DNA from: a virus
IMG/VR virus record: IMGVR_UViG_3300022890_000011
Span: 102,602-166,601 of that record
Reading direction: 5' to 3' (one strand)
DNA length: 64,000 nt
The notes below the pieces were generated by a model. The model was not told where the DNA came from. It worked only from the letters and a program-made list of their open reading frames with translations, and ran no database searches. Shown in pieces: positions 33,396 through 61,347 of the stretch. The first letter of the stretch is position 1. Each line of letters opens with the position of its first letter. The translations under genes were made by a program, and so were the position numbers.

Positions 33396-33824
33396 ATGGA
33401 TGTAGATAAAATAAAAGAGTGGTTAGATTCACCAGAAGGTAAAAAAGATTTTAAGGAATATATGCTTAAGGCGACTAATAAAGACGAACATAGTCAAAAA
33501 AGGTTTCTTAGAGTTGAAAAATATTTAGAAAATTGTGATTTTGATTCTTTAATGGAAAGATTGAAAGATGAACATGGTGATGAATATCGTGATAAATGTT
33601 ATAAGAAAGGATATGAACCTTATAATAATAGAAAATTAAGTCTTTTAATAAAATGGATATGTGACAGATTTGAATCAATAGAAATATCTAAATTAGACTC
33701 AATGTTTTTAGCTGAGACTTATGTATATAAAAGTTACGTGTTCCAATTATTCCAGGGACAAGGATGTTTTTGGAGAGTATCTAAGAGGGTTGGTGATAGT
33801 TATGAATCATTTTTCCAAGTTTAA
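33396..33824 (+). CDS. Conserved phage hypothetical protein (C-terminal GQG)
   Basis: ORF. Confidence 0.6.
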   Translation: MDVDKIKEWLDSPEGKKDFKEYMLKATNKDEHSQKRFLRVEKYLENCDFDSLMERLKDEHGDEYRDKCYKKGYEPYNNRKLSLLIKWICDRFESIEISKLDSMFLAETYVYKSYVFQLFQGQGCFWRVSKRVGDSYESFFQV

Positions 33825-34150
33825 ATTAACCCCAATTTATTACCTTGAATTATACTTAACATACCTTCCACATCACTATCATCAAAATCTATGTGTATAA
33901 CATCAGGCCATTTTTTAGTATGATGTATCCATGCGTATGCCTCTGATTTACCAGCCGAATTCTTATTGAATATATAAACATACAATTCACCAAATTTATC
34001 AAAGAATTGGTGCATTGTGGGTGGTATATTTAGATTACAACCGACCTTTTCTAGATTTATTTTTAATTCTTGTAGTTGTTCTAAGTTATGTGTAATTACA
34101 CAAAATTGAGCATTAGAATCTTTTTCATTATATGTTTTTAAATACTTCAT
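33821..34150 (-). CDS. MKYLKTYNE...GNKLGLI tagged protein
   Basis: Carries both terminal tags; last gene of the fibre operon. Confidence 0.75.
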   Translation of the reverse strand: MKYLKTYNEKDSNAQFCVITHNLEQLQELKINLEKVGCNLNIPPTMHQFFDKFGELYVYIFNKNSAGKSEAYAWIHHTKKWPDVIHIDFDDSDVEGMLSIIQGNKLGLI

Positions 34151-34488
34151 TAAATATCATCAAAGATTTTTCCACTCCAACCGTCAATTGTTTCAAGTTG
34201 AGTTTTTAATTTACCATAAAATACCACAAATATATCATCTTCAGTTAATTCCTCGTCTGTACATGCGATACTATAGTTATTTGTTATTTCACTACATTTA
34301 ATTGAATCGAAATTTAATTCTCTATCTTCTTTTGATTTGTATAATGTCAGACTTAATTTGATATTATTCTGATCTTTAATTTTATAATATTCTGTGATAT
34401 GACAATATCCACTGTTTGTTGTAAACCCACCGTTTACATTTAAAGTTATACCATTTTCCGTGGTGCTGTTTCCCATAAAAAGTCCCAT
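34150..34488 (-). CDS. Tail-fibre-associated small protein
   Basis: Position downstream of fibre genes; LY.SKE.R and Y..LK patterns. Confidence 0.5.
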   Translation of the reverse strand: MGLFMGNSTTENGITLNVNGGFTTNSGYCHITEYYKIKDQNNIKLSLTLYKSKEDRELNFDSIKCSEITNNYSIACTDEELTEDDIFVVFYGKLKTQLETIDGWSGKIFDDI

Positions 34489-34505
34489 TATTTATTTTTA
34501 TTTTT

Positions 34506-36011
34506 TTAGAAATTTTCTAATATATACCAAGTTTTTTCATCACTACAAACTTTAATTGATTCTCCTGCTAAAATATCAACATCAGTAACACCATCTATTA
34601 GATCTACTGATTGAAGTGAGACGACATTTGATTCTGATATATTCTTTACTATATATACATGTCCTGAAATTCTATTTGATGGTAAAGTTATTGTTAATGT
34701 CTCCTCGGATGAAGAAGCTATTATGATATAATCACTTTCGTTTTCTGTGCTACCAATAGTATAATCGGCAACAATACTTCTGTTTTTGTGAATAATTCCT
34801 CCATTTGAAATATCAAAATTTCTACCTGTGTCTTTTAAAGTTACTTCACCTAAATAAACAGTTGATCCACTTACCACGACATCATCACAAGAAATAGTTG
34901 TAGCTGTTAAATTACCTGTAACATCTATATCATTGTCTATCACAACATCACCTAAAGTATTAACTGTGAATATTTCATCATCATTAGAATTAGTTAAGAT
35001 TAAAGGATAATATACCCCTAAAGTATCTTCACCCTTTACATGTATTGTAGAATCAATAGAAGCCGTTCTAATTCCCCATTGGCCTTGACTATTTCTACTT
35101 CCATCTCCACCTGTAATCCAGGTAGTGGGTTCGCTAGAATTGGATCCGAAAGCTGTTGAAAAATGTATATCATTATTTTGAAGTAAAGTACCTCCGCTAT
35201 TTATGCCGAAACCTATTATACCACCGTAGCCTATGTCATTTCTAGTATACATACCCAAAGTAAAACTTTTAGTTTGGTTGTTAGCTCTCCAATTTTGATT
35301 GGATATACCCACATCTAATAATTCTTTTCCATATCTAGCATAATTACTTATTCCTAAGGAAAATCTTCTAGAACCTGAAGTGGAATTAGGTAAAGTTGTT
35401 CCACTATAACCAAAGTTTAAATCAACGTAACCAGATTGTAAAGATTTTCCAAAAGATGTAGTATGGCCTACAGATGTTATATTATCTCCATAATAATTGG
35501 CCTTGACTATTGTTCCTGCATCGGATAAATTATTTCCTGTCCAAATTCCTACCCCTCCGGCATGGTTGGCGCCGATAGACATTTTTAATTTAGTATTAAG
35601 GTCCTGTATAATATTATATCCAATGCAGAAGTCCCATTGACAACCACCAACAACACTATTTACTGCTATAATATGTCCTGGGTTATAAACGATTGTTACT
35701 GCTGTTAGTGCTCTAAAAATTCCATCATTCCAATAAAAACCAGAACTACCAGTTATTTGACTGTCATCATTACCATAAGCTATTTGATTGTCTGTAAGAT
35801 CACCTGAATAAATTGAAGTGGAAGCACTTAAGAAAGCATTTTCATATTGACTTGGTGTATATTTATCATTAACATTCCAAGTACCACTCTCATTTTTATA
35901 ATGTAAATCTTTATCGGAAGATAAAACGTAGAGTGAACCATGACCACCATAAACAATAGGTTCATATGTTTCTTTTAATTGTAAATAATCTTGTATTCTA
36001 AAATAACTCAT
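34506..36011 (-). CDS. Tail fibre/virion protein, paralogue of 36037-37554
   Basis: Gly/Ser/Thr-rich; C-terminal LTITLP...G.VYIVKN...IDG...W domain. Confidence 0.7.
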   Translation of the reverse strand: MSYFRIQDYLQLKETYEPIVYGGHGSLYVLSSDKDLHYKNESGTWNVNDKYTPSQYENAFLSASTSIYSGDLTDNQIAYGNDDSQITGSSGFYWNDGIFRALTAVTIVYNPGHIIAVNSVVGGCQWDFCIGYNIIQDLNTKLKMSIGANHAGGVGIWTGNNLSDAGTIVKANYYGDNITSVGHTTSFGKSLQSGYVDLNFGYSGTTLPNSTSGSRRFSLGISNYARYGKELLDVGISNQNWRANNQTKSFTLGMYTRNDIGYGGIIGFGINSGGTLLQNNDIHFSTAFGSNSSEPTTWITGGDGSRNSQGQWGIRTASIDSTIHVKGEDTLGVYYPLILTNSNDDEIFTVNTLGDVVIDNDIDVTGNLTATTISCDDVVVSGSTVYLGEVTLKDTGRNFDISNGGIIHKNRSIVADYTIGSTENESDYIIIASSSEETLTITLPSNRISGHVYIVKNISESNVVSLQSVDLIDGVTDVDILAGESIKVCSDEKTWYILENF

Positions 36012-36036
36012 TATATAAAATATTTTCCGTTGTGAT

Positions 36037-37554
36037 TTAAACTACTATATAATCTCCTATTATGTACCAAGTAGTACCATTATTGGTCACTGTGACAGAT
36101 GTGTTAAATGCTAATTCATAGGAAGAAGCACCATCAATATTAGCACTGGAATCAAGGTTCATTTGTGATTCAGTTTCAGATACATTTTTAATTATATAAA
36201 TTTGACCAGTTCTTAAACTAGTACCGGTTAATGTTAAAGTTACTCCATCTTCTCCAGTAAATAAAACAATCATATCTTCATCATTTGAGCCTATAGTATA
36301 ATCTAAAGTTATACCAGTTAATTTATAAATAACACCACCAGAAGATAGATCTAAATTCCTACCATTATCAGATAAAGTTAGATCTCCTAGATGTAAACTA
36401 GAACCACTAGTATATAGATCATCACAATAAACAGTAGTAGCAGTTAAACTACCTGTTACATCAACATCTCCAGCTATAAAAGTAGTACCATCATCAGTTA
36501 CGGAAAAAACCTCACTACTAGAACTATTATCTAATATTAAAACATCAGTAGCGCCAGCTGTTCCTTCTCCTTTCACATGTAAAGTTCCAGTAGGTGTATT
36601 TTCTCGAACACCAACTCTACCTTGGCTACCAACTGTACCATCTCCTCCTGTAATCCACATAGTAGGAGTATCAGAATAAGAACCAATAGCTATAGAATTA
36701 TAAGTATCATTAGTTAAAGATGTATTAGCATCCACTCCATATCCTATAATACCACAAAATTCATTAGAAGCTACTGTATAATTACCAAAACAAAAATTAA
36801 AATCAAGGTTGGTGTTTATGTTATTGTAGTAACCAAGACACATACTATAGGAACTACCACTTATAGTATTAGACACTCCAAAGACAACCCTTTTTTGAGA
36901 ATTGGTGTCATCTTGAACTAAAACATTATAAGTCCCAAAAACAACATCTTTCCATCCTAATGTATTATCAGAACCACAACAAACACATCCTCCTACTACA
37001 TCTAAAGTTTCTCCATATAAAATAGAAGTTTCACTACTATTAGATTGAGTAAAATTATATCCAACCCAAATACCACTGGCATTAGTAAAAGTATGTCCAA
37101 TTGATAATTTATATTCAGGGTGTGTTGTTTGAGTTATACTAGTACCTATCGTAATATTATAATTACTACTATTAGAATTAATCGTAGAATTATTAGCTAT
37201 AATAATAGCTTCATCACTATCATTAATAGTATTATTGTAACTAGCTCTAAAGTCACCAGTCGTAGGATTCCAAGTTAAACTACTATCACCACTTATCTTA
37301 TTAGTAGCATCGCCATAAGCAATATTATATTGATCCATTTGACCATCATAATATTCAGTACTAGCAGATAGGAAATTATTGTTAGCTTGAGTTGTACTGT
37401 AACTATCGGTTAAATTCCAAGATGTACCACTTTCATTAACATAATGAATATGTTTAGTAATATCTGAAGCATATATAGTACCATATGTTAAAGCAGTATT
37501 AACATTAGTAACATATTTCATTTGAAAACAATCTTTTAATCTAAAATATCCCAT
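36037..37554 (-). CDS. Tail fibre/virion protein
   Basis: Same architecture as its neighbour; beta-roll-like G-repeats. Confidence 0.7.
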   Translation of the reverse strand: MGYFRLKDCFQMKYVTNVNTALTYGTIYASDITKHIHYVNESGTSWNLTDSYSTTQANNNFLSASTEYYDGQMDQYNIAYGDATNKISGDSSLTWNPTTGDFRASYNNTINDSDEAIIIANNSTINSNSSNYNITIGTSITQTTHPEYKLSIGHTFTNASGIWVGYNFTQSNSSETSILYGETLDVVGGCVCCGSDNTLGWKDVVFGTYNVLVQDDTNSQKRVVFGVSNTISGSSYSMCLGYYNNINTNLDFNFCFGNYTVASNEFCGIIGYGVDANTSLTNDTYNSIAIGSYSDTPTMWITGGDGTVGSQGRVGVRENTPTGTLHVKGEGTAGATDVLILDNSSSSEVFSVTDDGTTFIAGDVDVTGSLTATTVYCDDLYTSGSSLHLGDLTLSDNGRNLDLSSGGVIYKLTGITLDYTIGSNDEDMIVLFTGEDGVTLTLTGTSLRTGQIYIIKNVSETESQMNLDSSANIDGASSYELAFNTSVTVTNNGTTWYIIGDYIVV

Positions 37555-40500
37555 TTAAGCATTATATCTTGTTTTTTCTACCCAAGTTCCACCTGAATAA
37601 ACCTCTACGACTAAATCTCTACCAGGCTCTTGGTGATCTATGCCTTGTCTCCAACTACCTTCTGTATTAGTAGGTCCCCAATAAATAAAACCATCTTCAT
37701 CTATATATACATTATCTGAAAATATAGTGGTAGCGCTCAAAGCGGTTATGTCAATATTAGTGGTTGATAGTGTTTCTGTTCCATAATCCCAAGTTAAACC
37801 GCTTTCTGATGTTGCTGTATTTCCACTACCAAACAATATTTCTTTGTCGGTAGCTGTTACACTACCACCAGAACTTCCACTATTAGTTAAATCCCATGTT
37901 GTTCCACTTTCATTCACAAAATAAATGTGACTATCATCTTCGCTAACATAAAGTCCACCATATCCTGTTTGTTCTGTTGGTGTTGCTATATGTGGAAGGA
38001 ATAAAGTGTTATGCACTTTAATAAAATCGTTGTCAAATTCACCATAAATTAAAGGAGTTGTTGTGTTTGAATTTGCGATATATAATTTGTTTGAATAATA
38101 CTCACTATATCCAGCACTATGTCCAATAAACACGTTGCCTGTTCCTCCTGTGTTTATGTATCCTGCACTTCTACCTAAATATGTATTATTATAACCTTCT
38201 TTATTAAATTTACCAGCATAAGCACCAATGAAAGTATTATCTATACCAGTACTAACATATGCAACATGTGTACCTATAAGAACACAATTATTCCCAGCAT
38301 TCTGATAGCCTGCTTGGTAACCTATTGCAACTGTGTAATCAGCGTCTGTAGTATTAGAAGTTGTACCTATAGCTACTAATCCTACACTTTCGGTACCGAT
38401 ACTACCTGCACCTGCACCAATTAACACATTATTGTTACCACTTGTTAATCTACCACCAGTACTATTTCCAATAGCAGTATTATTACCTCCTGTTAATGCG
38501 TCATCTAAAGCATTTGAACCTATAGCAACATTAGCTGTACCTGTATTGTTTGTTAGTGCTAAATAACCTATACCGACACAATAACTTTGTGTATTTGTCT
38601 TTAATGCCCGATAACCTATACCAACATTATATGTTCCACTATTCACATCTCCTGCTTCATAACCAAAATGGACATTGCCTATACCAACACCTTCTATTTC
38701 CATTAGGTTATTTGTACCATCAGAAAATAAGAAATATCCATTATCAGCAATTGTTAAAATACCATTACTTGAACTATTTTGAAATTCTAAAATGTTTGTA
38801 GAACCTGCTGCACCAGAACCTTTAGCAAAAAATGTTGTTCCATCCCAAGTTAAATTACTTGAACCAGTTATTGTATTAGAACCATTTCCAAATGCTATAT
38901 GATCTGTTTCTAAGGATATTGTATTAGCACTTAAAAAATAATCACTTGTTTGTGCAGATGTATAATAATCACTCAAATCAGTTGAACCTGTATCAGTTAA
39001 ATTAAAAGTATTTCCACTTTCATCAACAAAATATGGTAGTGCATTTATTGCATTTACATAAAACCCACCATATCCTGTTTGTTCTGTTGGTGTAGAAATT
39101 AAAGGTAAGAATAAACTATTGTGTATTCTAATATGATTACTTGAAAAATCACCATGAATTAAAGGTGTAGTAGTATTTGTATTTGCAATATAAAGTTTAC
39201 TGCTTCCTAATTCATCACTACCAGCATCATAACCAATAAAGACATTTGATGAACCAGTTGTATTGTTACCGGTATGATATCCAATTGCGGTATTTTTTTC
39301 TCCAGTCACCACGTCCTCCAATGCACCTATACCTAAAGCAACATTATATTGAGCACTTACAACTTTGTAAAGTGATCTAGTACCAATCCCTATATTATAT
39401 GAACCATCTGTACAAGCGTTTCCAGATTCTCTTCCTGTAAAAAAATTAAAGAAACCTGATCTTAAATTGGCTCCTGCATTATCTCCAATACAAATATTTT
39501 CATCACCATCAATTAAATCATAACCTGATTGGTAACCAATTAAAATGTTTTTAAATCCTTCCGTTACTTTATAACCCGCAAGATTTCCAATTAAAACATT
39601 GTTATATCCAGTTGTTATCGCCGAACCAGTATTGTGTCCTAATATAACATTATTAGCACCTGTAAAACCAACGGCATCACCTGATTTATAACCAATGGCT
39701 AAATTACTTGCACCATAACAATTTTTAAGTGAATCTGTTCCAATTCCTATACCATTGGTAGCACCTGTAGTACTTTGACCCGCACCATGACCGATATAAA
39801 TAGTCTCACTAGCAAGATTATTATATCCAGCCAAATATCCTATCGATATATTATAATCACCTGATATATTCTCGTATCCAGAAGCATAACCAAATGCAAG
39901 ATTACCAAGACCATCTGAATTTGAGTAACCTGCTTCATAACCAAAAAAATTGTTGTAATTAGCAATATTTGAATATCCTGCTTGATAACCAATAATAACA
40001 TTATTTATACCATCTACATTTGAATATCCTGCACTATTACCAATAAACGTATTATTTTCACCTCCCTCAGTATATACTCCTGCATATGCACCTATAAATG
40101 TATTTGATGCACCATCTGTAAGAGCATTTCCAGCCGCAGCACCAAAAATAGCGTTATACAATCCAGTCATTGTGAGGTTTCCAGCATTTAATCCAATTGC
40201 TGCCGATGTTGCAACACCACTTTGTATATTTAATCTACCATTAATATATAAAGATTCATCATTGTATGATAAATTACTTGAGCCACTTATTTCATTTGAA
40301 CCAGAACCGAATGCAATTTGGTCTGTAGCCAAAGATATTGTTGTCGCTGATAAAAAGTTAGCACTTGTTTGTGCAGATGTATAATAACCACTTAAATCAG
40401 TTGTTCCCGTATCAGTTAAATCCCATGTACTACCACTTTCGTTTATGAAATAAATATGACTGTTAGCTGTATCAACATATAAACCACCATAACCAACTTG

Positions 40501-42826: not shown

Positions 42827-44038
42827 ATGAAAAAACTTAAACACTTAAAGACATACGAAGGTTTCACAGTGAAAAATTCATACATTCCTACTTACGAGGA
42901 AGCAGTAGAAATATGCGAAGTTAATAAAAATTTCTATGAGAACACACACGAAGTCAACGGATATAAAGTGTCTACGTTTAATTATAGAATCGCAGGTTAT
43001 GAAGATTTTATAAACCCACTACCAGATAAACCAAATGTTAATGCTAGAGAATTAAGAGGTTTAACCTTCATTTTTAATGAAGATGGTTCTTTATATAAAA
43101 AATATTTACATTTGCAAAAGTTTTGGAATATAAATCAAGTAGAAGAAACATTCTACCAAAATATTAAAGATTATAAAATCGTCGGCGTGGCTGATAAATT
43201 AGATGGTTCTTTGGTTACATTCGTTAAATTTCCAAATGGTGATGTTCTAAGTAAAACTCAAAACTCATTCGATAACGAACAAACAGAAGTAGTAAATAAA
43301 TTGTACAAAGATAATGAAAGTATTCAAAACTTTATCAAATGGTGTGAAAAGAAAAATTATGTAGCATTATTTGAATATGTTTCATTTATGAATAAAATTG
43401 TACTAGATTATGACGAACCTCAATTAATACTATTGAGAGTTAGAGATAATGATACTGGTGAATACATTGAATTTAAAAATCTAAAAGATTTGGGTGAAAT
43501 ACCAATCGCTGAATCAGAAGAATTTGATAATTTAGAAGATATAATAGAACTCGCTAAAAATATAGAAGATAAAGAAGGATGGGTTATAACATTACAAGAT
43601 GAAAATGGTCAATATACCATGGTTAAACAAAAGACTGATTGGTACTTTATTAGACATAGATTAAATGATAAAGTTGAAAGGGAGAATGATATTATTGAAT
43701 TAATATTGGATAATACTATTGATGATATTTTATCACAATTAGACCCTGAGAGGGATGCTAGTAAGATTAAATTTATTAATGATATTACAAAGGTGGTTTC
43801 TGATTGGGTTAATGGAAGAGTTATAGAAGTTCAAGAATTAGTAGATAAATTTGATGGTGATATAAGAGATTTTGCTATTAGATATAAAAAAGATAAAAAC
43901 TTTGGTATGGCTATGATGGTTGTTAGAGGTTATGATACTAATGTATTTAATATTGTAAAAGAATTTTTAAAGAAAAATACAAATAAATTAGAACAAGCTA
44001 GAAGTTTTATAAAAAGAAAAGATTTTAAAAGAAAATGA
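42827..44038 (+). CDS. RNA ligase, T4 Rnl1-like, with LKHLKTYE leader
   Basis: E.RGL.F, KFWN..Q, KLDGSL, FEY....IV..Y, EGWV, K.K..WY. Confidence 0.88.
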   Translation: MKKLKHLKTYEGFTVKNSYIPTYEEAVEICEVNKNFYENTHEVNGYKVSTFNYRIAGYEDFINPLPDKPNVNARELRGLTFIFNEDGSLYKKYLHLQKFWNINQVEETFYQNIKDYKIVGVADKLDGSLVTFVKFPNGDVLSKTQNSFDNEQTEVVNKLYKDNESIQNFIKWCEKKNYVALFEYVSFMNKIVLDYDEPQLILLRVRDNDTGEYIEFKNLKDLGEIPIAESEEFDNLEDIIELAKNIEDKEGWVITLQDENGQYTMVKQKTDWYFIRHRLNDKVERENDIIELILDNTIDDILSQLDPERDASKIKFINDITKVVSDWVNGRVIEVQELVDKFDGDIRDFAIRYKKDKNFGMAMMVVRGYDTNVFNIVKEFLKKNTNKLEQARSFIKRKDFKRK

Positions 44039-44933
44039 TAAGAAATTATGATAATTTTTTGTTTGAGAAATATGGTTCAAATGAGTTAGTTAGAAAACTT
44101 ACTTTTTATTTGGAAGATGTTATAAATAAAAATATTGGTAAATTGATTTTAAATAAAAAAATTGTATTAAATGGTAGTTTAAAAAATTTCACTGATATTA
44201 ATTTTCTAAATGATGAAATTGAGATTGTTTTGTCAAATGAGACACATGGTGGTGTATATCTAAAATTATTATTAATTGATAATAATAAAATAGAAAATCT
44301 TAAATTGGTATTTAAGATGGTTTTATCACCAGTTGAAAAAACATCTAAAAAATTGAATCGAGATAATAAAATTATAAATATTATTTCTCATGAATTTTTA
44401 CATGTTGTTGAATTATTTTTGACAAAATTAAACAATAATTTAGAATCTAGATCATGGGAATATGGAGATAGATTAAAAATATTAAAGAAAAAATATTTAA
44501 ATAGTTGTGAATTTCAAAAAGTAGAATATTTAATATATTTGTCTTTGCCTCATGAAATAAGAGCCAGAATTGAACAATTGAATAAAAATGTGGAACAAAA
44601 GAATATAATTGGTATAAAAAAAACTCAAGAATATATAAAAACAACTAAAATATATAAAGATGTTGATTTTTTATCTACCATTAATATAGATAAGATTTTA
44701 CTAAAATTAAAGAAGTTGATTATGATTTAATCATAAAAGATTTTAATCATTTGTTTTTGCAGAATAATGCAACGAATATAAAACAATATGAAAATAATTT
44801 TAAAAATTATTTTAATACTTTATTAAAAAGAAACAATAACACGATTAAAAAATTGCTTAAAGTATCATATAATTTTCAGGATGGTTTAATGTTAGAAGAA
44901 GATATAAATATAAATTATTCTGAATATAAATAA
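44035..44933 (+). CDS. HExxH putative metallopeptidase; frameshift near 44712 splits off 44751-44933
   Basis: ISHEFLHVVE, Y...PHEIRAR; N-term MIRNYDNFLFE. Confidence 0.55.
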
Positions 44934-44947: not shown

Positions 44948-45592
44948 ATGAAAATAAGACAAGGATTTGTAAGTAATAGTAGTTCGTCATCTTTTATAGT
45001 GACGTTTCCAAAAGAAATGAAAAACGTAAGAGATGTTAAAGAATCATTATTTCCTGATGGAAAAACATTTAGTATAGAAACAACATCCTCATGGAATGGG
45101 ACAGGAACTATAATTGATTCAGATGAAATAGCTGAACACGTATGGAAAGATATACAAAATTCAGGTGATAAGACTGTATTTGAATTGATTTTTTTGCTTG
45201 GTGAAGATTATTTAGATGGTTTTTATAATGATTGGGGTGAGCCAAAAATGTGGAGATATGTTCCATATTGGAGAGAAGAAGGTTTTGAAAAAGAAGGCAC
45301 CAAACTTGGGTTATTGGATGAATTTGAAGGTTATACTAATTTGAAAGACTTAGAAGAAGATATTAAAATTAATGATTCTATAATAGATCAGGATGATTGG
45401 GATAAATATCCACAAGGAGCTGATTCTGGTTTAGAATCAGTTAAAGAATATATTGAAAAAGCAAAAAAGATTATCGAAGGTGATGAACAATTATATTTCT
45501 TTACATGGTCTGATGATTCTTCTTATGATGCAGCTTTTGAACATGGTGATGTATTTAGAAATCTTCCATGTAAAATAGAATCACATCATTAA
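44948..45592 (+). CDS. MKIRxGFVSNSSSSS-leader protein
   Basis: MKIRQGFVSNSSSSSF; ends EHGDVFRNLP...SHH. Confidence 0.8.
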   Translation: MKIRQGFVSNSSSSSFIVTFPKEMKNVRDVKESLFPDGKTFSIETTSSWNGTGTIIDSDEIAEHVWKDIQNSGDKTVFELIFLLGEDYLDGFYNDWGEPKMWRYVPYWREEGFEKEGTKLGLLDEFEGYTNLKDLEEDIKINDSIIDQDDWDKYPQGADSGLESVKEYIEKAKKIIEGDEQLYFFTWSDDSSYDAAFEHGDVFRNLPCKIESHH

Positions 45593-48842: not shown

Positions 48843-49211
48843 ATGAAATATTTAAAAACATTTGAAAATGATCAATTGAATTTATCCTTTAATATTTGGT
48901 TTGATTTAATCGAAATATCTAATAAATTATATAATAAATATTGGAAATATGATTCAGTTGAAGATATTGATATGGTTAAAATCAAACTTGAAAATACAAT
49001 TTTTGTAAATATTTTTAAATTCAATGAAATAGAATTATGGAAATGGAAACATACTGACCCAGAATTATATATAAATATAACCAATGATGGTACTAATTCT
49101 ACCACTATAAGTAATGTTGATGATCTTGAATTAAATGATAAAATACATGATGTTTTGAAAGATCCAAATACAATAATAAAACTAGAAGCAAATAAAATGG
49201 GTTTATTATAA
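48843..49211 (+). CDS. MKYLKTFE...EANKMGLL tagged protein
   Basis: Both terminal tags. Confidence 0.75.
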   Translation: MKYLKTFENDQLNLSFNIWFDLIEISNKLYNKYWKYDSVEDIDMVKIKLENTIFVNIFKFNEIELWKWKHTDPELYINITNDGTNSTTISNVDDLELNDKIHDVLKDPNTIIKLEANKMGLL

Positions 49212-51396: not shown

Positions 51397-52082
51397 CTAA
51401 TATTATCTAAGTGTTTTAAATACTCTCTGAGTGTTTTAAACACTTTTCCTTTTTTTGCTCTTTTATTATTTTGCTTTATTGCATTATTAATATCATTATA
51501 TTTTCCCGCCAAAGATTCCAATAAATTTAATTTATTTGCACTAATAACGTGAGATTTAATAAATTCATCAACGGTATCATATATTTCCGATAAATATCCT
51601 GTAGATTTTAATTTAGATAATGATATAATAGTATTTTGATAATATAATTGTGATGGTATTATTGATAGATATTTAATTGATGGGTTATATGTAGAACCTC
51701 TTATTTGATCAATATCTAAAGATTCGTAATTATTATTTTTTAAGAATTTAATTAAAGTATCATATTCCTCTTTGTTATTTATTTTAACAACATAGTTATT
51801 CCAACTTGTTGATTCCAATAATCCCATATTTATTCCTTGAAATAATGACTCCAATTCTTCAATTGTTGTAAATGAATCAATTATATTAAAAAGAGCACCT
51901 ATTTTATATTCTGTGAGGAATGTATAATAAAACCATTTTTCAGAAGGTATAATTACAATATAATGTGCATAATCATAATACTTAGAAGACTCATTATTTT
52001 GATAATCTTGTTTTAATAAATAATCTGTGTATAAAACAAGATCTTTTTTATTATCTATTTTTATTAAATATGCACTTTTCAT
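51393..52082 (-). CDS. Two-module protein with internal GINMGLLE and ANKLNLLE tags
   Basis: Duplicated Y.(I/V)KI.NK module, each ending in the tag. Confidence 0.7.
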   Translation of the reverse strand: MKSAYLIKIDNKKDLVLYTDYLLKQDYQNNESSKYYDYAHYIVIIPSEKWFYYTFLTEYKIGALFNIIDSFTTIEELESLFQGINMGLLESTSWNNYVVKINNKEEYDTLIKFLKNNNYESLDIDQIRGSTYNPSIKYLSIIPSQLYYQNTIISLSKLKSTGYLSEIYDTVDEFIKSHVISANKLNLLESLAGKYNDINNAIKQNNKRAKKGKVFKTLREYLKHLDNIS

Positions 52083-52453
52083 TAAAATAATCCTAAGTTA
52101 ATTTTTGATTTTAATTCTTCGTCAAATTTGATAGTTAATTCAAATATTATTCTATTATCACCTTCTTCATAATCATTTTTTGAAAAACCCATTACTTTTA
52201 AAGATAATTCATATGTTTCAGATATATTTTCGAATCTTTCTTTAATATCAAATAATTCTGATAGTTCATATTCACCGTCTATTTTCCATACAAAATCTAA
52301 TTTTTCTATATCAGAAATTGAGTCAAAAAAATCATAATCTTCTTCATCTTCATAATAGACTGGATAATTTAATAATTGATTTTCAATTATTTTGATAAAT
52401 TTTTTTAAAATTTGTTCGTCTATTTTTTCGTTATATGACTTTAAATATTTCAT
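52082..52453 (-). CDS. MKYLKSYNE...KINLGLF tagged protein
   Basis: Both tags. Confidence 0.75.
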   Translation of the reverse strand: MKYLKSYNEKIDEQILKKFIKIIENQLLNYPVYYEDEEDYDFFDSISDIEKLDFVWKIDGEYELSELFDIKERFENISETYELSLKVMGFSKNDYEEGDNRIIFELTIKFDEELKSKINLGLF

Positions 52454-52861
52454 TATATTAAACCCATTTTATTTCCTTCTACTTGAGATTTACAATCATC
52501 TGATATTAAAAATTCATATATATCATAAGCATATTCTAATAAATTGTATTGTCTAATATCACCTAAACTATATAGTTCACCTTCATCTTCTACTATTGTT
52601 ATATCAGTGTTTTTACGATCTTTATTAATTGTTAATTTGTTAAAATGTTCAATATCTATTAATAAAGTTAAATGTGTTCCCTCACCTATATATTTCTCAC
52701 ATAATGATTGGATATTTTCTATTAAATCTTCAAGTAATTCTGATCTTTCTTGTATATTGTCGATATTTGAATTCATGTTTAATTATATTGGATTGTAAAT
52801 CTTCAATCTTTTTATCATTCCAATCCTTAAAATCTTCGTTATATTTCTTTAAGTGTTTCAT
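52453..52861 (-). CDS. MKHLKKYNE...EGNKMGLI tagged protein with a 1-nt frameshift near 52778
   Basis: ATG at 52861 gives MKHLKKYNEDF; joins ORF 52453-52776 if one A is removed. Confidence 0.65.
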
Positions 52862-53184
52862 AATAGTCCCATCTTTAAAGATTCTATCATATCTTTATTT
52901 ATTTTTGATAAAGAAAAAATTAATATTAGATAAATTGCTTCAAGACCAACATCAATTTCAATTTCAACATTAAAAATTTCACGTAAATTATTTAGTTTAT
53001 TTAAATAATCATCCTTTGTTAAATAAATAATATCAGGATCTCTAAAATTAATAGATATAACAAAATTATCATTAGAATTTAAATAACTATTAAAACCTTT
53101 ATTAAATATCTTTTTAACGTAATTTTTAAGAGGTTCTTGAAAATAATCCCAACTAGATTCATTGTATTTATTTAAGTGTTTCAA
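52858..53184 (-). CDS. MKHLNKYNE...SLKMGLL tagged protein (TTG start)
   Basis: Both tags. Confidence 0.75.
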   Translation of the reverse strand: MKHLNKYNESSWDYFQEPLKNYVKKIFNKGFNSYLNSNDNFVISINFRDPDIIYLTKDDYLNKLNNLREIFNVEIEIDVGLEAIYLILIFSLSKINKDMIESLKMGLL

Positions 53185-53250: not shown

Positions 53251-54000
53251 ATGAATAAAAATGCAAAAATATTAATAATCCCTGATTGCCACGGTCATGA
53301 TACATTCAAGCAATCACTTAAAAATAATAATATTGATAAGTATGATTTAGTTATTTTTCTTGGTGATTATTGTGATAGTTTTACTCTTGATAATATTACA
53401 ATTAAGAATAATTTATTAGATATAATTCAACTTAAAAAAGATTATCCAGATAAAGTAGTTCTTTTATGGGGTAATCATGAGATGCATTATTATTTAGGTA
53501 GAAGTTTTAAATGCACAGGTTTTAGATCTGAGGCTTATTTTGATTTGAATGAAATATTTGTTAAAAATAGTGATTTATTTCAAACTGCTTTTCAGTTAGA
53601 CACAAAAGATGGTGACAAATATTTGTTTAGTCATGCAGGTGTTGAACAGGGGTGGTATGATGAACATATAAAAGAACATTTCACATATGATATGGCATTT
53701 ACATTAAATATGTTATTTGAACAAAATTATAAACCAATTTTTGATGTTGGTCGAGGAAGAGGCGGTTTCAAAAGAGTTGGTGGTGTGTTATGGGCTGATT
53801 ATCATGAATTATATCAAAGTCCCATTAAGGGTTATAATCAAATAGTTGGACATACTTATTTAAAAGATGGTTTTAGATTGATGAAATGGGATGATGGTAG
53901 ATTTGTTCATTTTATTGATGGTCCACCATATTATTTAGAAATGGAAATTGAGAATGTTATCTCTTGGGAATTGTTTAATGACCAGGAAATCCAAGATTAA
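53251..54000 (+). CDS. Calcineurin-like metallophosphoesterase
   Basis: DCHG, GDYCD, GNHE, SHAG, GHT. Confidence 0.9.
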   Translation: MNKNAKILIIPDCHGHDTFKQSLKNNNIDKYDLVIFLGDYCDSFTLDNITIKNNLLDIIQLKKDYPDKVVLLWGNHEMHYYLGRSFKCTGFRSEAYFDLNEIFVKNSDLFQTAFQLDTKDGDKYLFSHAGVEQGWYDEHIKEHFTYDMAFTLNMLFEQNYKPIFDVGRGRGGFKRVGGVLWADYHELYQSPIKGYNQIVGHTYLKDGFRLMKWDDGRFVHFIDGPPYYLEMEIENVISWELFNDQEIQD

Positions 54001-54017
54001 AAAGTCTTGGATTTTTT
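53987..54017 (+). terminator. Intrinsic terminator-like hairpin
   Basis: aaatccaagat / gtcttggattt followed by a T run. Confidence 0.6.
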
Positions 54018-54063
54018 GTTTATATTTGAATTTTAGTTTTTAATATATAAAATAAATGATTGA

Positions 54064-55566: not shown

Positions 55567-55577
55567 TCAAGATCTAA

Positions 55578-55955
55578 TTATAATAATCCCATTTTTTTAG
55601 ATTCTATAAACGTTGTTACATCTTCACTTGTTAAATAATTATAAAAATCTTGCATACCTTTTTTATCATTAAATAAAGGATTTTTATAATCTAATGATTT
55701 AAATTTACCATGATATCTTAAAAGTTCAACTAAAAATATTTGATTGTGTTCAATTGTAATATATATATTATATATAATACCAGAGAATGGTTCACTGAAA
55801 TATATTAAACAAGTATCAAATTTTGTAGTTAAAATATTACCTGGAACATTTATTTCATATTTTTCAATTTGTGTTAATTTACTTATTTCATCTAATTTAG
55901 ATAGAATCTTGTTTAAAACTTCTGATTCGTTTATAAAATTGTTATAGTTTTTCAT
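55578..55955 (-). CDS. MKNYNNFINE...ESKKMGLL tagged protein
   Basis: Both tags. Confidence 0.75.
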   Translation of the reverse strand: MKNYNNFINESEVLNKILSKLDEISKLTQIEKYEINVPGNILTTKFDTCLIYFSEPFSGIIYNIYITIEHNQIFLVELLRYHGKFKSLDYKNPLFNDKKGMQDFYNYLTSEDVTTFIESKKMGLL

Positions 55956-56395
55956 TATAATAATCCTAAATTTTCCCCTTCTATATAATGAATGTTTTCT
56001 TCATTAAATGTTTTAAATTTATCTTTATCATACTCTATAATTATATCAAGTTCTGGATGTGTTTCTAAATCTAAATAATAGTCAAGGTTAGTATCATCTA
56101 ATATTTTCTTGAATTTATTTAATTCATTTAAAAAATATGAAAATTCTGTCTTGATGATTCCAGTTTTCTCCCACTCTGTATTAAATTCATTAAAACTAAT
56201 TCTTATTTCGATACCACCTTTGAATAATCCTTCGATAGTTACATTGTAATTATTTATAAGAAAATATTTATAAAGTATTTTAATAGTTAGTTTAGTATCA
56301 GCACCATGTTCTATTGAAAATTTTTTAATAGAGTTTTTAAATGAGGATATCATGCTTTTATATGTTACTTCGTTATATTTTTTAATATATTTCAT
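55955..56395 (-). CDS. MKYIKKYNE...EGENLGLL tagged protein
   Basis: Both tags. Confidence 0.75.
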   Translation of the reverse strand: MKYIKKYNEVTYKSMISSFKNSIKKFSIEHGADTKLTIKILYKYFLINNYNVTIEGLFKGGIEIRISFNEFNTEWEKTGIIKTEFSYFLNELNKFKKILDDTNLDYYLDLETHPELDIIIEYDKDKFKTFNEENIHYIEGENLGLL

Positions 56396-56408
56396 AAATT
56401 ATTATTTT

Positions 56409-56804
56409 CTATTTGGGTGTGCTTCTGCTGTGTGTATTGAATGTTTTAAATTTAATTATTTTTTTTTCATCAACATCTTGAACTATTAAATCTTCTTTAC
56501 CTTCTTCATCAAATTTTCTACCAGTTCCATCTTCTGATTTTCTATTTTTCATTCCTTTTTCCCAGTTTGGTAAACCAAATGTTGGATTATAATAATCTTC
56601 TATTTCTTCTTCATGATCAGAAGCTATTGATTTATATACGTAATCTTTTGGTGGTAATTCGCCGTTTTCATCAAAATATTTTTTGATAAGATCATAAGTT
56701 GGTTTGTGTTCAGATTGAATTTCAGCACCTGATTCTAATTCTTCTTGATTTTCAAATTCATCGAATCTTTCTTCAAAGTCTTGGTATTTTTTAATATTTG
56801 ACAT
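56409..56804 (-). CDS. Acidic protein with IKKYQDFEE leader and IIKFKTF near the C-terminus
   Basis: ORF. Confidence 0.7.
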   Translation of the reverse strand: MSNIKKYQDFEERFDEFENQEELESGAEIQSEHKPTYDLIKKYFDENGELPPKDYVYKSIASDHEEEIEDYYNPTFGLPNWEKGMKNRKSEDGTGRKFDEEGKEDLIVQDVDEKKIIKFKTFNTHSRSTPK

Positions 56805-56879
56805 TATGTAAATTTTAATTTTTTTAAAATATTTATGTTATATTGTGTATATATTAAAATAAATTCTTTAATCTAAAAA

Positions 56880-57620
56880 ATGACAAAACAAATCGTAATT
56901 ATTGGAGATTCTCATGCTAGACCAATAGCCATTGAGATAATAGAATTACATCTAAAAAGCGCTCATAAAATAATACTACTTGGAGATTACGTAGATCCAT
57001 ATATTCTCTCACCAATATCAGATAAGAAGGTAGTTAGTCACCTAAAAAAGATTATTAAATATAAAAAAGATTATCCAGATAAATTTGTTTTATTGATAGG
57101 CAATCATGATATACATTATGTTCATCCTTCAATAAGATGTAGTAGATATAATTATAAAATTGCTACTGAATTAAGAGAATTATACACAGAAAATTGGGAT
57201 TTATTTGATATATCACACCAAATAGAAAATTATCTTTTTACACACGCTGGTGTTTGTATGAAATGGTTAGATAAACATTGGTCACATTTTGAATCTTTTG
57301 GTCTTAAACCTGATTATTCTAATATAGATCAAGTTTTGAAAGATGTTCATAAAAGTAAATTGTTTTATATTTTACATGAAGTTGGTTCTTTTAGATCTAA
57401 TCCGGAAGAATATCCTAAAGTAAGCGGTGCTGTTACCTGGTGTGACAAAAGTGAAGGTAAAAATGATTATATACCTGGATTTCATCAGTATGTTGGTCAT
57501 AGTCAAGGTGGTATTTTAGAAACATTTGGTGATGATGAGTCTTCAATAACATATTGTGATACATTGGGATTGTCAGGCGAATATGTAGTATTAAAATTAA
57601 AAGATGATGAAAGTATTTAG
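56880..57620 (+). CDS. Calcineurin-like metallophosphoesterase (paralogue of 53251)
   Basis: GDSH, GDYVD, GNHD, THAG, GHS. Confidence 0.9.
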   Translation: MTKQIVIIGDSHARPIAIEIIELHLKSAHKIILLGDYVDPYILSPISDKKVVSHLKKIIKYKKDYPDKFVLLIGNHDIHYVHPSIRCSRYNYKIATELRELYTENWDLFDISHQIENYLFTHAGVCMKWLDKHWSHFESFGLKPDYSNIDQVLKDVHKSKLFYILHEVGSFRSNPEEYPKVSGAVTWCDKSEGKNDYIPGFHQYVGHSQGGILETFGDDESSITYCDTLGLSGEYVVLKLKDDESI

Positions 57621-57927
57621 ATTAAATATAATTAATGAAGATTTTTCTGAATTACAAGAGAAATTATTTAATATTAAAATATATTGGAGTAATGTTGGAA
57701 AATATTCACATAGTTCAAAATATGGTGATTATATTTATATTTTTAAACCAACTGATACATGTTTCCATGGAAAAAATTGTGATGCTGTGTTTGCTTTTGT
57801 TCATCATGAATCTGGGATTATGGATCATTATAAATGTGATTATGATTATATTGATTTTAAAAGTTTTAAAGATTTTGAAGAAAAACATAAATGGTTATTT
57901 GAATCTAGTAAAATGGATTTAATATAA
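57604..57927 (+). CDS. Hypothetical protein with ESSKMDLI tail
   Basis: C-terminal tag. Confidence 0.65.
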   Translation: MMKVFRLNIINEDFSELQEKLFNIKIYWSNVGKYSHSSKYGDYIYIFKPTDTCFHGKNCDAVFAFVHHESGIMDHYKCDYDYIDFKSFKDFEEKHKWLFESSKMDLI

Positions 57928-58458
57928 TCCCATTTTATTTGCATTATGTAGGTCTGGGTTTTCTTTCCAAAACCATTTCCAATAACCTTCTAAATTATCA
58001 TAAGGTAATTGGTTATTTTCACAATATAATTCTTTTAATCTTTTAGATAATTCAGGTAATTCAGTTAATTGGTTATTATAACAATATAATTCTTTTAATC
58101 CTTTTGGTAATTCAGGTAATTCAGTTAATTTATTATTAAAACAATATAAATATTTTAATCCTTTAGGTAATTCAAGTAATTTAGTTAATTGATTATTATA
58201 ACAATATAATATTTTTAACCCTTTAGGTAATCCAGGCAATTCAGTTAAATAGTTATCATAACAATATAATCTTTCTAATCCTTCAGGTAATTCAGGTAAT
58301 TCAGTTAATTTGTTATTACCACAATATAAATATTTTAATCCTTTAGGTAATTCAGGTAATTTAGTTAAATTTAAATTAAATAAATTTAATGTTTTACCAT
58401 TATTACTTAAATTGTCTTTAATTAATTGATTTTCATTGTATGTCTTTAAATACTTCAT
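57919..58458 (-). CDS. Leucine-rich repeat protein (20-aa IpaH/YopM-type repeats) with both terminal tags
   Basis: About 6 x LPELP.GLK.LYC.NN.LT; MKYLKTYNE...NANKMGLY; 60-bp DNA repeats. Confidence 0.85.
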   Translation of the reverse strand: MKYLKTYNENQLIKDNLSNNGKTLNLFNLNLTKLPELPKGLKYLYCGNNKLTELPELPEGLERLYCYDNYLTELPGLPKGLKILYCYNNQLTKLLELPKGLKYLYCFNNKLTELPELPKGLKELYCYNNQLTELPELSKRLKELYCENNQLPYDNLEGYWKWFWKENPDLHNANKMGLY

Positions 58459-59199
58459 TTAACCATATTTTTTAATATATTGATTCCAGTCCATTGTATT
58501 AACATGTCCTTTTTCTAATTCAGTTAAACATTTATATGGTTTTGGGTTTTTATAATCTTCTATGTCAACCTCTTGTGTTTGTGTATAATTGAATGGTCTA
58601 TTACCAATTGGTTTTTCTTTTGATACTAAAAGGTTATGATTTTTGATAATCATTTTACCATTTTTATATGTTTCTGTATTACTTTCTTGATATAATTTTT
58701 GTCTATCAGCAATATTCATAGATTTATTATAAGGTACAGTTTTATCTTTTTTTGATGGTGATTTTATATGTTCTTTCCATTCTTCATTTGGTGTATGTTT
58801 ACTTTCTATATAGTCTTCTAGTGATATTGCATGACCATGAAGCATATCATTTTCTATAACTTCTATTTTATATTCATTATATAATATTTTTATATCTTCA
58901 TTCCATACATTTCTAAAACATATTTCTAAACTGTTTAATATGGGATATAATTCTTCTGGTTCAGGATAATTCCAAAATGATATTAGTTTTTTATCTGTCC
59001 ATATTCTTCCAGAATAATTATATTCTAATAATCCATACATTTCTATCATTGATGCGTGAGTTGCACTAGGTTCTCCTATATATGATCTACCATCAACAAT
59101 CCAAAATGGCCTCGCATCTTTATCTTTATATTCTGCTTCTTCCCATGGGATCGCGTCAGGATTTTCCGTAAATAATTTAAATGATTTTATGTGTTTCAT
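58459..59199 (-). CDS. MKHIKSFKLFTE-leader hypothetical protein
   Basis: Leader; SGRIW..KK.ISFW.YP. Confidence 0.7.
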   Translation of the reverse strand: MKHIKSFKLFTENPDAIPWEEAEYKDKDARPFWIVDGRSYIGEPSATHASMIEMYGLLEYNYSGRIWTDKKLISFWNYPEPEELYPILNSLEICFRNVWNEDIKILYNEYKIEVIENDMLHGHAISLEDYIESKHTPNEEWKEHIKSPSKKDKTVPYNKSMNIADRQKLYQESNTETYKNGKMIIKNHNLLVSKEKPIGNRPFNYTQTQEVDIEDYKNPKPYKCLTELEKGHVNTMDWNQYIKKYG

Positions 59200-59226
59200 A
59201 GTTTATAGTTTATAGTTTATTTTTTA

Positions 59227-59604
59227 TCATACTAATAATGCCATTTTATTTATTTCGAGTAAACGATTAATGTTTTTCTCTGAAATACGTATTTGATGAT
59301 AACAACCACCACTTTTTTCAAGTTGACTAGTTGTTTTAAAACCATATTCTTCTAATAATTCAAATTTACTTAGCAATTCATCATATTCTTCTTTTATATC
59401 ATATTCATTAAAATTAAGAGCATAACCTACATATAAATCATCAGGGCCATTTATGACAAATGAATATGAACTATCAATGTGAAGATATGATTTACTATCA
59501 CTAAATATTTTATCAATAATTTTTTTCACTAATCTTGATTTATCATGAAATGTTGTTCCTTTATCTGGATTGATATGATCTTCATATGTTTTAATATATT
59601 TCAT
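59227..59604 (-). CDS. MKYIKTYE...INKMALLV tagged protein
   Basis: Both tags. Confidence 0.7.
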   Translation of the reverse strand: MKYIKTYEDHINPDKGTTFHDKSRLVKKIIDKIFSDSKSYLHIDSSYSFVINGPDDLYVGYALNFNEYDIKEEYDELLSKFELLEEYGFKTTSQLEKSGGCYHQIRISEKNINRLLEINKMALLV

Positions 59605-60530
59605 TATTTTTGATTTTGTATATCTTGTACAATCTGTACAATTTTATCTTTATTTATTGCAAAACCACCTTGATTTTTATCTGTCTTTAATTTAATTGAA
59701 CCTTGTGCAACTCCTTCTTGATCTTGAACAACTTGTGCTGTATTTTCATCACCGTCTTTTTTAGTATATTTAATTTTTTGACCTGATTTATATTCTTTTT
59801 GTGTTTGTGTATCTTCGTTTTTATTTTTAATCATACCTTGTAATTCTTTAGCTGATTGTTGATATTCTTTTTCAATTTTAGCTCTAGCTTCTTGTACTTT
59901 CAATAGAGTTTCTTTATTACCTGTAGATTTATAATATTCTTCTTTTTTCATAAAAGTGTAATCTTGAAATTCTAGTTTCTTTGTAGTTACATATTTTTGT
60001 AGAGTTTTTGAAGGATTTTTCTCATTTAATCTTTTACCTACTTCTTCGATTTGTGTAATTGCGTCTTTTATGACTTTATTAACCTGATCTGTATATAATT
60101 TGTCAAGTTTTTGAATAGAATCTGCATCATTTTGACTTAAATCTGTTTGAGTTTGAGTTTCTTCCTGTTCTTTTATATAAGAAACATTTTCTTGTTTAAC
60201 TGCTGTTTGTGGTTGTGTTTGTGGTTGTGTTTGTGGTTGTTTTTTGTTTGTTTGTACTGGTATTTTACCCTCAGGAGTTTCAACTTGTTCCATTCCTTGT
60301 TTAACATTGGATTTAGATGCTTTAAATTGTTTTGAAGACTCAGCCCATTTATTAAATAGTGTTTCTATATTTGCTCTGTAAGTATCATATACCTTATCTA
60401 CTTCTTGACTGCCTTTAATATTTTTCCCAATCTTGTCTAACCAATTGAATAATTTTTTGAAGATGCCTTCATTTAGTTGATCTTTATCGTAGCCATTCTT
60501 TTCTAGGAATTTATTATACTTTGTAATCAT
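59604..60530 (-). CDS. Gln/Lys-rich protein with MITKYNKFLE leader (putative head internal protein)
   Basis: Leader, LNE-G site, QPQT repeats, SH3-like C-terminus. Confidence 0.65.
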   Translation of the reverse strand: MITKYNKFLEKNGYDKDQLNEGIFKKLFNWLDKIGKNIKGSQEVDKVYDTYRANIETLFNKWAESSKQFKASKSNVKQGMEQVETPEGKIPVQTNKKQPQTQPQTQPQTAVKQENVSYIKEQEETQTQTDLSQNDADSIQKLDKLYTDQVNKVIKDAITQIEEVGKRLNEKNPSKTLQKYVTTKKLEFQDYTFMKKEEYYKSTGNKETLLKVQEARAKIEKEYQQSAKELQGMIKNKNEDTQTQKEYKSGQKIKYTKKDGDENTAQVVQDQEGVAQGSIKLKTDKNQGGFAINKDKIVQIVQDIQNQK

Positions 60531-60575
60531 CGCATAGATTTTTCTTTTATATATTTAATTTTGTTATTGAAAAAA

Positions 60576-61347
60576 AATTAATCTTTAGAAAATTTTTAAT
60601 ATATAAGATATATGGAAAAATATCTTGAATTCATATCAGAAAGTAGATATAAGACACATGGTCTAAATACGATAAAAAGACAGTTGAAAAGAATTCTAGG
60701 TTTTATGTTGGCTAAATATAAAATTCACTATAATTATGATACAGATGATTTTGGTATTTATTTTACAAAAATTGATATGAAAACTAAAAATCTTTTAATT
60801 CTTACTTGTGAAACAATAGGCTATTTTCCATCTATTTTTGAAGTAGATGATGATGTACAAAAACCTAATTCAATAAAAACCATTGATGATTTTATTGAAT
60901 TTGTAAAAGAATATGAAATACCACAAAACTACAAAATAATATATTTTCAATTCGAATCATGGTTAGATAATTCTGTACAAACACCAGAGTTATTATATCA
61001 TGTTTGTAGATTAATTAGTATTGATAAAATAAATAGATATGGTCTTTATCCAAAGGCTAAACATAAAATATCATATCACCCAGATAGAGTGTATTTTACA
61101 TCATCTTTAATAGATGCTAAAAATATCATAGAACAATTTAAAAATATTAATAATATTGATTATTCAATTGTCGAAATTGATATTAGTAAAAATGATTTTA
61201 ATGATGTACCTGTCCATAAAAATTTATTAGTTAGAAAAGACCCAAATTTTGAATCAGGTTATTATACTTGTCAAAATATACCACCATCATGGATTTCAAA
61301 AATAATTAATCTTTAGAAAATTTTTAATATATAAGATATATGGAAAA
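60576..61347 (+). repeat. Perfect 44-bp direct repeat 60576-60619 / 61304-61347
   Basis: aattaatctttagaaaatttttaatatataagatatatggaaaa in both copies. Confidence 0.92.
60612..61316 (+). CDS. Putative ADP-ribosyltransferase-fold protein with MEKYLEFISE leader
   Basis: LYHV...I.RYGL.PK...HPDRVYFT...DP...GYYT.QNIPP. Confidence 0.6.
   Translation: MEKYLEFISESRYKTHGLNTIKRQLKRILGFMLAKYKIHYNYDTDDFGIYFTKIDMKTKNLLILTCETIGYFPSIFEVDDDVQKPNSIKTIDDFIEFVKEYEIPQNYKIIYFQFESWLDNSVQTPELLYHVCRLISIDKINRYGLYPKAKHKISYHPDRVYFTSSLIDAKNIIEQFKNINNIDYSIVEIDISKNDFNDVPVHKNLLVRKDPNFESGYYTCQNIPPSWISKIINL

Follow-up and report, generated by a model that had tools for sequence, protein, structure and literature searches.

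A short N-terminal leader on many unrelated proteins of a virus contig and its likeness to the capsid-targeting sequence of phage T4

The peptide that addresses proteins to the head of phage T4 was defined in 1996, and what it binds has been open since. In the internal proteins IPI, IPII and IPIII it takes the form of an N-terminal capsid-targeting sequence (CTS) of about ten residues carried by unrelated proteins (PMC3012670; PMC9026906); loading needs no more than the first ten, of which residues 4 and 7 act in targeting and residues 8 and 10 in processing, and the ADP-ribosyltransferase (ART) Alt is packaged, trimmed by gp21 at both ends and injected (PMC9026906). In the T4 record (NC_000866), ipII and ipIII begin MKTYQEFIAE, the leader type that an earlier reading of the present DNA from its letters alone (the sequence-only reading) had named, and ipI begins MKTFKEF, with TITE further on. 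Here we describe a leader of similar size and position that stands at the start of many genes in the last 64 kb of a linear 166.6-kb virus contig (IMG/VR record IMGVR_UViG_3300022890_000011; 25% G+C), a stretch of 64,000 nucleotides that we call the window, and we weigh the reading that it may be a tag of the T4 kind.

Two other systems invite comparison. Giant phages of the phiKZ type (201phi2-1, phiKZ and SPN3US) also carry tens of proteins in a large head and cut them after Glu with a diverged gp21-type protease, but they belong to another lineage with another head architecture and rely on long propeptides rather than on a shared short N-terminal tag (PMC9026906; PMC5694885; PMC10052503). 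The proteases of related giant phages cut after Glu with few other determinants (PMC9026906). The cargo-loading peptide of encapsulin-type systems, which binds an HK97-fold shell on its inner face, is C-terminal and is not matched by the N-terminal leader seen here.

The contig is estimated by CheckV to be 58% complete, and simple calling of open reading frames (ORFs) gave 251 ORFs spanning 94% of it. The public genomes nearest to it are those of huge phages, namely LR756501 (735 kb), LR756502 (642 kb), LR745206, LR756504 and LR756500 (462 kb); more distant relatives include the Lak phages and two cultured jumbo phages of Bacteroidota, Tenacibaculum phage PTm1 and Chryseobacterium phage MA9V-1. 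We take these huge phages (460-735 kb) to be of the Mahaphage type, a group that includes the 735-kb record genome.

The leader occurs in two forms: form A, which reads MK[YH][LI]K[TK][YF], and form B, which reads [YF]xx[FY][IL]xE after the initial Met and a few residues. Nine intact form A genes, three form B genes and two relaxed versions were found in the window, together with one frameshifted and one nonsense copy. Every N-terminus listed by the sequence-only reading was present at its place, one of its entries (MKHLKKYNE) belonging to the frameshifted gene; its description of leaders ending in Glu at residues 8-12 fits most of them but not all, the first Glu of form A falling at residue 8 or 9 in 25 of 29 leaders in the contig. 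The damaged copy that it had called a pseudogene (4029-4211, + strand) reads MKY*KLFDEE, with an in-frame TAA at codon 4 where TTA (Leu) is expected, and represents either a pseudogene or a sequencing error. Across the whole contig, 42 of the 251 ORFs bear a leader (31 of form A, by the strict pattern within the first 20 residues, and 11 of form B), which amounts to about one gene in six (10-17%).

These numbers lie far above chance. Beyond the first 20 residues of each protein, the strict form A pattern occurs once in about 47,000 residues of the contig. When internal Met residues were used as mock starts (n=726), form A was found at 26 of 251 true N-termini and at none of the mock ones (Fisher, 2e-16), and form B at 11 of 251 against 2 of 726 (1e-5). 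At the level of DNA, a degenerate pattern gave 8 matches in the window where 0.18 were expected, a count reached in 0 of 100 shuffles. Base composition or an A/U-rich start is ruled out as the cause by the shuffles together with the internal-Met control. BLAST sorts the 42 leader proteins, once trimmed at both ends, into 39 families; the leader therefore sits on unrelated bodies, and paralogy is ruled out as well. The leader itself is thus a solid observation, confirmed in these counts, and our literature search found no published description of such a tag in megaphages.

The conserved element is a peptide. Conservation begins exactly at the ATG and fades after about codon 9, giving a leader of 9-13 residues, and the DNA upstream is unconserved (about 0.1 bit per base). 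Within the leader, codon choice for Lys, His, Tyr and Leu is as variable as in the genome at large, or more so (AAG for Lys, 25% versus 12%; CAC for His, 40% versus 16%). Because synonymous codons vary and upstream DNA is unconserved, selection acts on the peptide, and a DNA-level signal is ruled out. A single synonymous site does look constrained: the Thr6 codon of form A leaders is ACA in 20 of 21 cases, versus 54% genome-wide (p 7e-5).

The leader also appears to lie outside the folded protein. In the AlphaFold2 model of the leucine-rich repeat (LRR) protein, the mean predicted local distance difference test score (pLDDT) is 92, with residues 1-6 below 50; in the model of the 234-residue ART-fold protein the mean is 79, with residues 1-13 below 50 and forming a loose helix. 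Since leader residues score below 50 in both models, the leader is, as modelled, an appendage outside the folded body. Disorder of the leader in the model with a pLDDT of 92 also gives no support to a pairing of the N- and C-terminal peptides as one element of the fold. That C-terminal peptide, K[ML]GL[LIMY], is a second tag present on about 24 of the 42 leader proteins, often after [ILV]-E-[GAS], which places a Glu about seven residues from the end. It was found in one related contig and not in LR756502. With this Glu it could be a C-terminal propeptide like that of T4 Alt, and many of the tagged proteins carry conserved peptides at both ends.

Form B is where the likeness to T4 is direct. 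It retains all four positions that are decisive in the T4 CTS, namely two aromatics at a spacing of three residues, an aliphatic residue after them and, two residues on, a Glu; in MEKYLEFISE, at the start of the ART-fold gene (60612-61316), five of seven residues are identical to the YQEFIAE of T4. In the family of the HExxH protein the two aromatic positions hold in 14 and 13 of 14 homologues and the Ile/Leu and Glu positions in all 14; in the ART-fold family the figures for Tyr, aromatic, Ile/Leu and Glu are 16, 16, 17 and 17 of 17 homologues, and in both families the residues in between vary. Applied to T4, the form B expression matched the ORF starts of ipII, ipIII and gp61.1 only, with one weak match 23 residues inside another ORF. 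The 54-residue, uncharacterised gp61.1 (NC_000866 18966-19130, L228) begins MKTFKEFIKE and fits the pattern like ipII and ipIII.

Form A, which has Leu or Ile at residue 4 and Tyr or Phe at residue 7, is tied to form B through homologues in related genomes. The PPK2-like proteins begin MKHLKTYDDLINE in this contig, MISNYDNFMNE in LR756501 and MINNFIKFINE in LR756502, an alignment in which Tyr7 of form A falls on the first aromatic residue of form B. Similarly, the LRR family has form A here and the hybrid MKYIKEYEDFINE in its LR756500 homologue. In LR756500, 400 kb yielded 19 leaders, and every one has the fused form of 13 residues, MKYI[KLQ]xYxxF[IL]xE. In LR756502, form A usually continues with [LI]FE and has an aromatic at residue 10 in 28 of 44 leaders, and in its form A leaders [ILMV]xE is enriched (70% versus 40%). 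The first 400 kb of LR756501 hold 28 form B leaders and no form A. Because fused leaders exist in LR756500 and homologues swap one form for the other, the two forms belong, on these alignments, to one system and are halves of one tag. The CTS likeness claimed for the whole family by the sequence-only reading therefore stands for form B, which keeps the four decisive residues, but reaches the form A majority, which lacks the aliphatic residue, only indirectly.

Further points of contact with T4 were found in the head genes of the relatives. As in the T4 lineage, these encode a serine protease of the gp21 type (Peptidase S77), a core scaffold and a capsid protein of the gp23 type, and the order portal, protease-scaffold fusion, capsid protein recurs in a 344-kb related contig, LR756500, LR756501, LR756502 and PTm1. 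The protease domain matches PF03420 with an E value of 5.7e-6, under the curated cut-off, and a profile built from five of the N-terminal domains matches T4 gp21 (PDB 5JBL) over 146 residues with an E value of 9e-8; the motifs GE(F/L/M)(D/E)HP and (V/I)SSR(A/G) hold the invariant His and Ser. The scaffold portion consists of 11-13 tandem repeats spaced by exactly 14 residues, the core of which, Y-[SA]-E-Y-[IL]-A-E, matches the Y-Q-E-F-I-A-E of T4 at five of seven positions. The capsid protein of the relatives has a conserved segment, WM[AS]EYAE..[MI]NE|N, at the end of its N-terminal extension, which we take to be the position of the trimming site in T4 gp23. When the scaffold-repeat profile was run against the proteins of this contig, N-termini made up 8 of the top 50 matches, compared with 2.2 expected (p 0.0016), and 15 of the top 100 in two relatives, compared with about 4. 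In a related contig the head module has leader genes on either side, and in LR756501 such genes are located some 6 kb upstream of the portal gene.

Two groups of small ORFs elsewhere in the contig echo these head proteins: G000:C1:8689-8970 and 95316-95723 contain one or two near-perfect scaffold repeats (YIEYIAE, YANYLAE, YNEYIVE), and 76939-77709 and 77735-78232, outside the window, match the N-terminal arm of the capsid protein, as only mini-ORFs do. PTm1 (AP019524, 'prohead core scaffolding protein and protease') shares with the relatives both the gene order and a protein in which a gp21-like domain is joined to a scaffold rich in repeats, but its repeat sequence differs. Its proteome has no shared N-terminal leader, for which reason it was rejected as a model phage in culture with proteomics. 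Also set aside, as an independent negative control, was a 348-kb contig of IMG/VR that is labelled complete, being a relative in which head genes were not detectable and which is probably incomplete.

That the leaders are a capsid-loading tag of the T4 CTS kind is the best-supported reading, and we put its probability at about one in two. Under this reading, the leader would fold into a short amphipathic helix and dock on the repeat scaffold during assembly of the prohead core. Once the shell has closed, the fused protease would have three kinds of substrate: it would cleave the scaffold behind every IAE, the capsid protein behind its NE and each leader behind its Glu. The freed proteins would remain inside the head and pass into the next cell together with the DNA. 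By analogy with T4, injection of the tagged proteins is probable, and the injected set would comprise the RNA ligase, LRR proteins, the ART-fold enzyme, the HExxH protein and many small acidic proteins. Cleavage of leaders of the [IL]-x-E form is well motivated. For MKYLKTY(N)E cleavage is uncertain; such leaders may be targeted untrimmed or trimmed by a looser rule.

Several observations weigh against capsid loading. The gp21-like protease that the sequence-only reading had expected in the rest of this genome was not found in the contig (58% complete), nor did Pfam models and our own profiles detect a capsid or portal gene in its 166.6 kb; since the contig has no head genes, the reading rests on the relatives, four of which, all megaphages, do have the protease. 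This link is a distant one: a shared unfoldase gene shows 43-64% identity between the contig and the relatives, and 46 of the 251 contig proteins have a BLAST match in the sequence compared from three of them. The scaffold-repeat profile recovers form B and not form A, which is in the majority here. At the position three before the Glu (P3), form A has Tyr, Thr or Lys in place of Ile, Leu or Met, and the first 30 residues of form A proteins in this contig show no enrichment of [ILMV]xE (38% versus 43%). No co-variation between leader and scaffold repeat was seen in LR756500. In the nearest cultured phages that share the protease-scaffold arrangement such leaders are missing: among 321 ORFs of PTm1 there were none of form A and one of form B, and in MA9V-1 the form A DNA pattern, the only check run, gave no match. 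The leader proteins are more acidic than the remaining proteome (median isoelectric point 5.1 versus 5.9, p 0.008), whereas the T4 internal proteins are basic. A literature search found no virion proteome for any tag-bearing phage, and we know of no phage that loads so many cargo species (10-17% of genes).

Tens of tagged genes in 166 kb compare with three or four in T4; a second form without the aliphatic P3, an acidic cargo that includes enzymes, and a C-terminal tag on many of the proteins are all unlike the T4 CTS. On the other hand, a diverse cargo with fast turnover is also typical of the polymorphic internal-protein loci of T-even phages, and most of the tagged proteins here have no detectable relatives, even in sister genomes.

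The leader could also be read by machinery that the phage itself encodes. Encoded in the window are a double AAA+ unfoldase of the ClpC/ClpA type, without an N-domain and with a ClpP-docking IGF loop at residues 530-532 (10598-12604, + strand), a canonical ClpP peptidase (25506-26165, + strand; PF00574, E 6.5e-65) and a soluble FtsH-like AAA+/M41 protein (5628-7907). Clp and FtsH enzymes read terminal tags, and one class of ClpX N-terminal motif begins Met-basic-hydrophobic-hydrophobic. The leader, above all its MK[YH][LI]K prefix and perhaps also the C-terminal K[ML]GLL, might thus be a degradation or unfolding tag for the phage's AAA+ protease, serving timed removal or the removal of unpackaged copies. 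ClpP and the prefix are both present in LR756502, LR745206, LR756504 and LR756500 and both absent from LR756501, PTm1 and MA9V-1, so that ClpP tracks the prefix in seven of eight complete genomes; this, like the presence of the enzymes in the window, counts against capsid loading. Yet shared descent confounds this co-occurrence, since three of the four genomes with both are sisters, and it is broken by Lak-A1, which has ClpP without the prefix; moreover, two prefix-rich contigs showed no ClpP in 434 kb and 348 kb, although both are probably incomplete. The unfoldase is conserved across the clade and ClpP is patchy, and the FtsH-like gene, absent from every relative searched and so confined to this contig, is ruled out as a general reader. 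Homologues replace the prefix form by the T4-type one, found also in LR756501, where ClpP is missing, and to our knowledge no system tags a sixth of its proteome for its own protease. We regard a degradation tag as unlikely, though a live rival. It is more doubtful still that the leader is bipartite, with a Y-x-x-F-[IL]-x-E part of the 13 residues that loads the protein onto the repeat scaffold and is cut by the head protease and an MK[YH][LI]K part that acts as a degron for ClpC-ClpP; were it so, the cell that makes the phage would degrade any unpackaged copies, and packaging with trimming would strip off the degron and leave the injected protein stable in the next host.

A tag acting at the protein level, at a terminus, outside the fold and on unrelated bodies is what any address label would look like, and the leader might equally dock its bearers to some other shared partner or place, such as a phage-built compartment, a chaperone or a host machine, its likeness to T4 being a convergence of short amphipathic helices. 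Some tagged enzymes (RNA ligase, PPK2-like kinase, AAA+-like protein) would be expected in the cytoplasm, and the second, C-terminal tag that accompanies some 24 of the 42 leaders here and is missing from LR756502 would suit such a role too. We found no candidate partner, however, and the four T4 determinants, the CTS-like scaffold repeats and the NE site of the capsid protein would all have to be coincidence, which makes such docking rather improbable. An action of the conserved ends at the nucleic-acid level, as borders of recombination cassettes or as an A/U-rich translation start, is the least probable account and hardly credible. In its favour, many of the tagged genes are arranged in tandem, with one gene's C-terminal tag directly adjoining the leader of its neighbour, the codons of the leader are very rich in A and T, and codon 6 shows the ACA bias given above (20 of 21). 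But the conserved stretch runs exactly from the ATG to about codon 9, the synonymous sites of its Lys, His, Tyr and Leu codons vary as much as the genome or more, junction and stop codons differ between arrays, shuffles and internal Met residues are nearly free of matches, and the order of residues is too specific for an effect of composition.

Those proteins of the window with an assignable domain bear out much of what the sequence-only reading had proposed as cargo. Its RNA ligase is a T4-type RNA ligase 1 (Rnl1) of 403 residues (42827-44038, + strand; PF09511, 3.9e-18), with the form A leader LKHLKTYE at residues 4-11. The match to phrog_562 (5.4e-61) starts from residue 23; an extension of about 18-22 residues holds the leader, and the domain begins at about residue 19-23, whereas the LR756501 homologue starts directly at the ligase domain, without a leader. 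The LRR assignment was likewise confirmed for the 179-residue protein at 57919-58458 (- strand; PF12799, 4.8e-29), one of four paralogues in the contig, which begins MKYLKTYNE (form A) and ends NKMGLY.

Overlapping the ligase gene is a form B gene for 231 residues (44035-44730, + strand; MIRNYDNFLFE), whose HExxHxxE lies at residues 119-126, with H119, E120, H123 and E126 invariant in 14 homologues; the motif named by the sequence-only reading is thus real, but the peptidase role is putative, with a weak SprT-like lead as to function. The form B gene at 60612-61316 (+ strand; 234 residues, MEKYLEFISE) encodes a C-terminal domain whose ART fold, also claimed before, is supported by a Foldseek search with the AlphaFold2 model, in which Tpt1/KptA, DarT1 and toxin A subunits were the top matches (E 6e-5). 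The presence of a leader on an ART-fold enzyme recalls T4 Alt; unlike Alt, to which it has no sequence homology, the protein matches Tpt1/KptA and DarT-like folds, and for the tagged proteins any trimming at the C-terminus is a guess. Two homologues (P0021 and P0027) carry two leaders in tandem, MKTFENFIKT and then SYLEFISE.

Most tagged proteins gave no match with Pfam and PHROGs. Among the remaining leader genes of the window, a form A gene for 109 residues (33821-34150, - strand), just downstream of the tail-fibre genes, starts MKYLKTYNE and bears the C-terminal tag NKLGLI; another, for 122 residues (48843-49211, + strand), starts MKYLKTFE and ends NKMGLL. Three lie together on the - strand: one for a very acidic protein of 123 residues (52082-52453; MKYLKSYNE, ending INLGLF), the frameshifted gene (52453-52861), in which a 43-codon leader ORF (MKHLKKYNE) runs from 52861 and the body (52453-52776, ending NKMGLI) is in another frame, and one for 108 residues with a TTG start (52858-53184; MKHLNKYNE, ending LKMGLL).

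A further - strand group comprises a form B gene for 125 residues (55578-55955; MKNYNNFINE, ending KKMGLL), a form A gene for 146 residues (55955-56395; MKYIKKYNE, ending ENLGLL) and a relaxed gene for 131 residues (56409-56804), which starts MSNIKKYQDFEE and whose residues 7 and 10 are aromatic, like those of the LR756500 hybrids. Upstream of the LRR gene follow, also on the - strand, a hybrid gene for 246 residues (58459-59199; counted above with form A), where MKHIKSFKLFTE joins the form A prefix to an aromatic pair and Glu and whose homologue in a related contig begins MKYLKTYKLFEN, a form A gene for 125 residues (59227-59604; MKYIKTYE) and a relaxed form B gene for a Gln/Lys-rich, low-complexity protein of 308 residues (59604-60530; MITKYNKFLE).

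Outside the window, the leader was also found on a PPK2-like and an AAA+-like protein. The former (G000:C1:61603-62817) was recognised by inspection of its FEGRDAAGKGS and DRSWYNR stretches rather than by a family search; it has an N-terminal extension of about 180 residues, and its leader is present in three megaphages.

Other shared elements accompany these genes. A different N-terminal peptide, MKIRxGFVSNSSSSS, occurs at 1034-1384, 1667-2152, 2631-3191, 4257-5006 and 44948-45592, never together with the leader. A promoter-like motif, TAATATATAA, lies about 15 or 30 nt before starts (e.g. 42441, 48843, 54064 and 60612 in the window), and in a related contig it stands ahead of the capsid and portal genes and of large genes that look structural. 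It was discarded as a marker of late expression, since it is also placed before some leader genes and many others and does not discriminate. Three paralogous ORFs of the TnpB/IS605 type are scattered over the contig (23477-24700 and 62828-63994 in the window; G000:C1:5783-6982).

If the leaders are indeed a capsid-loading tag, a Mahaphage-type megaphage would stock its capsid in advance with tens to more than 100 different proteins, an RNA-repair enzyme among them, by means of one portable tag, and the 'unknown' half of these giant genomes would be an arsenal delivered at infection rather than expressed later. Should the bipartite version hold, the leader would in addition give the phage a switch for quality control and safety over its very many injected effectors. 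Phage-based protein delivery could profit from a short tag able to bring arbitrary proteins into so large a capsid, and the CTS-like repeat scaffold of the relatives would offer a first concrete idea of what the T4 tag may bind or imitate.

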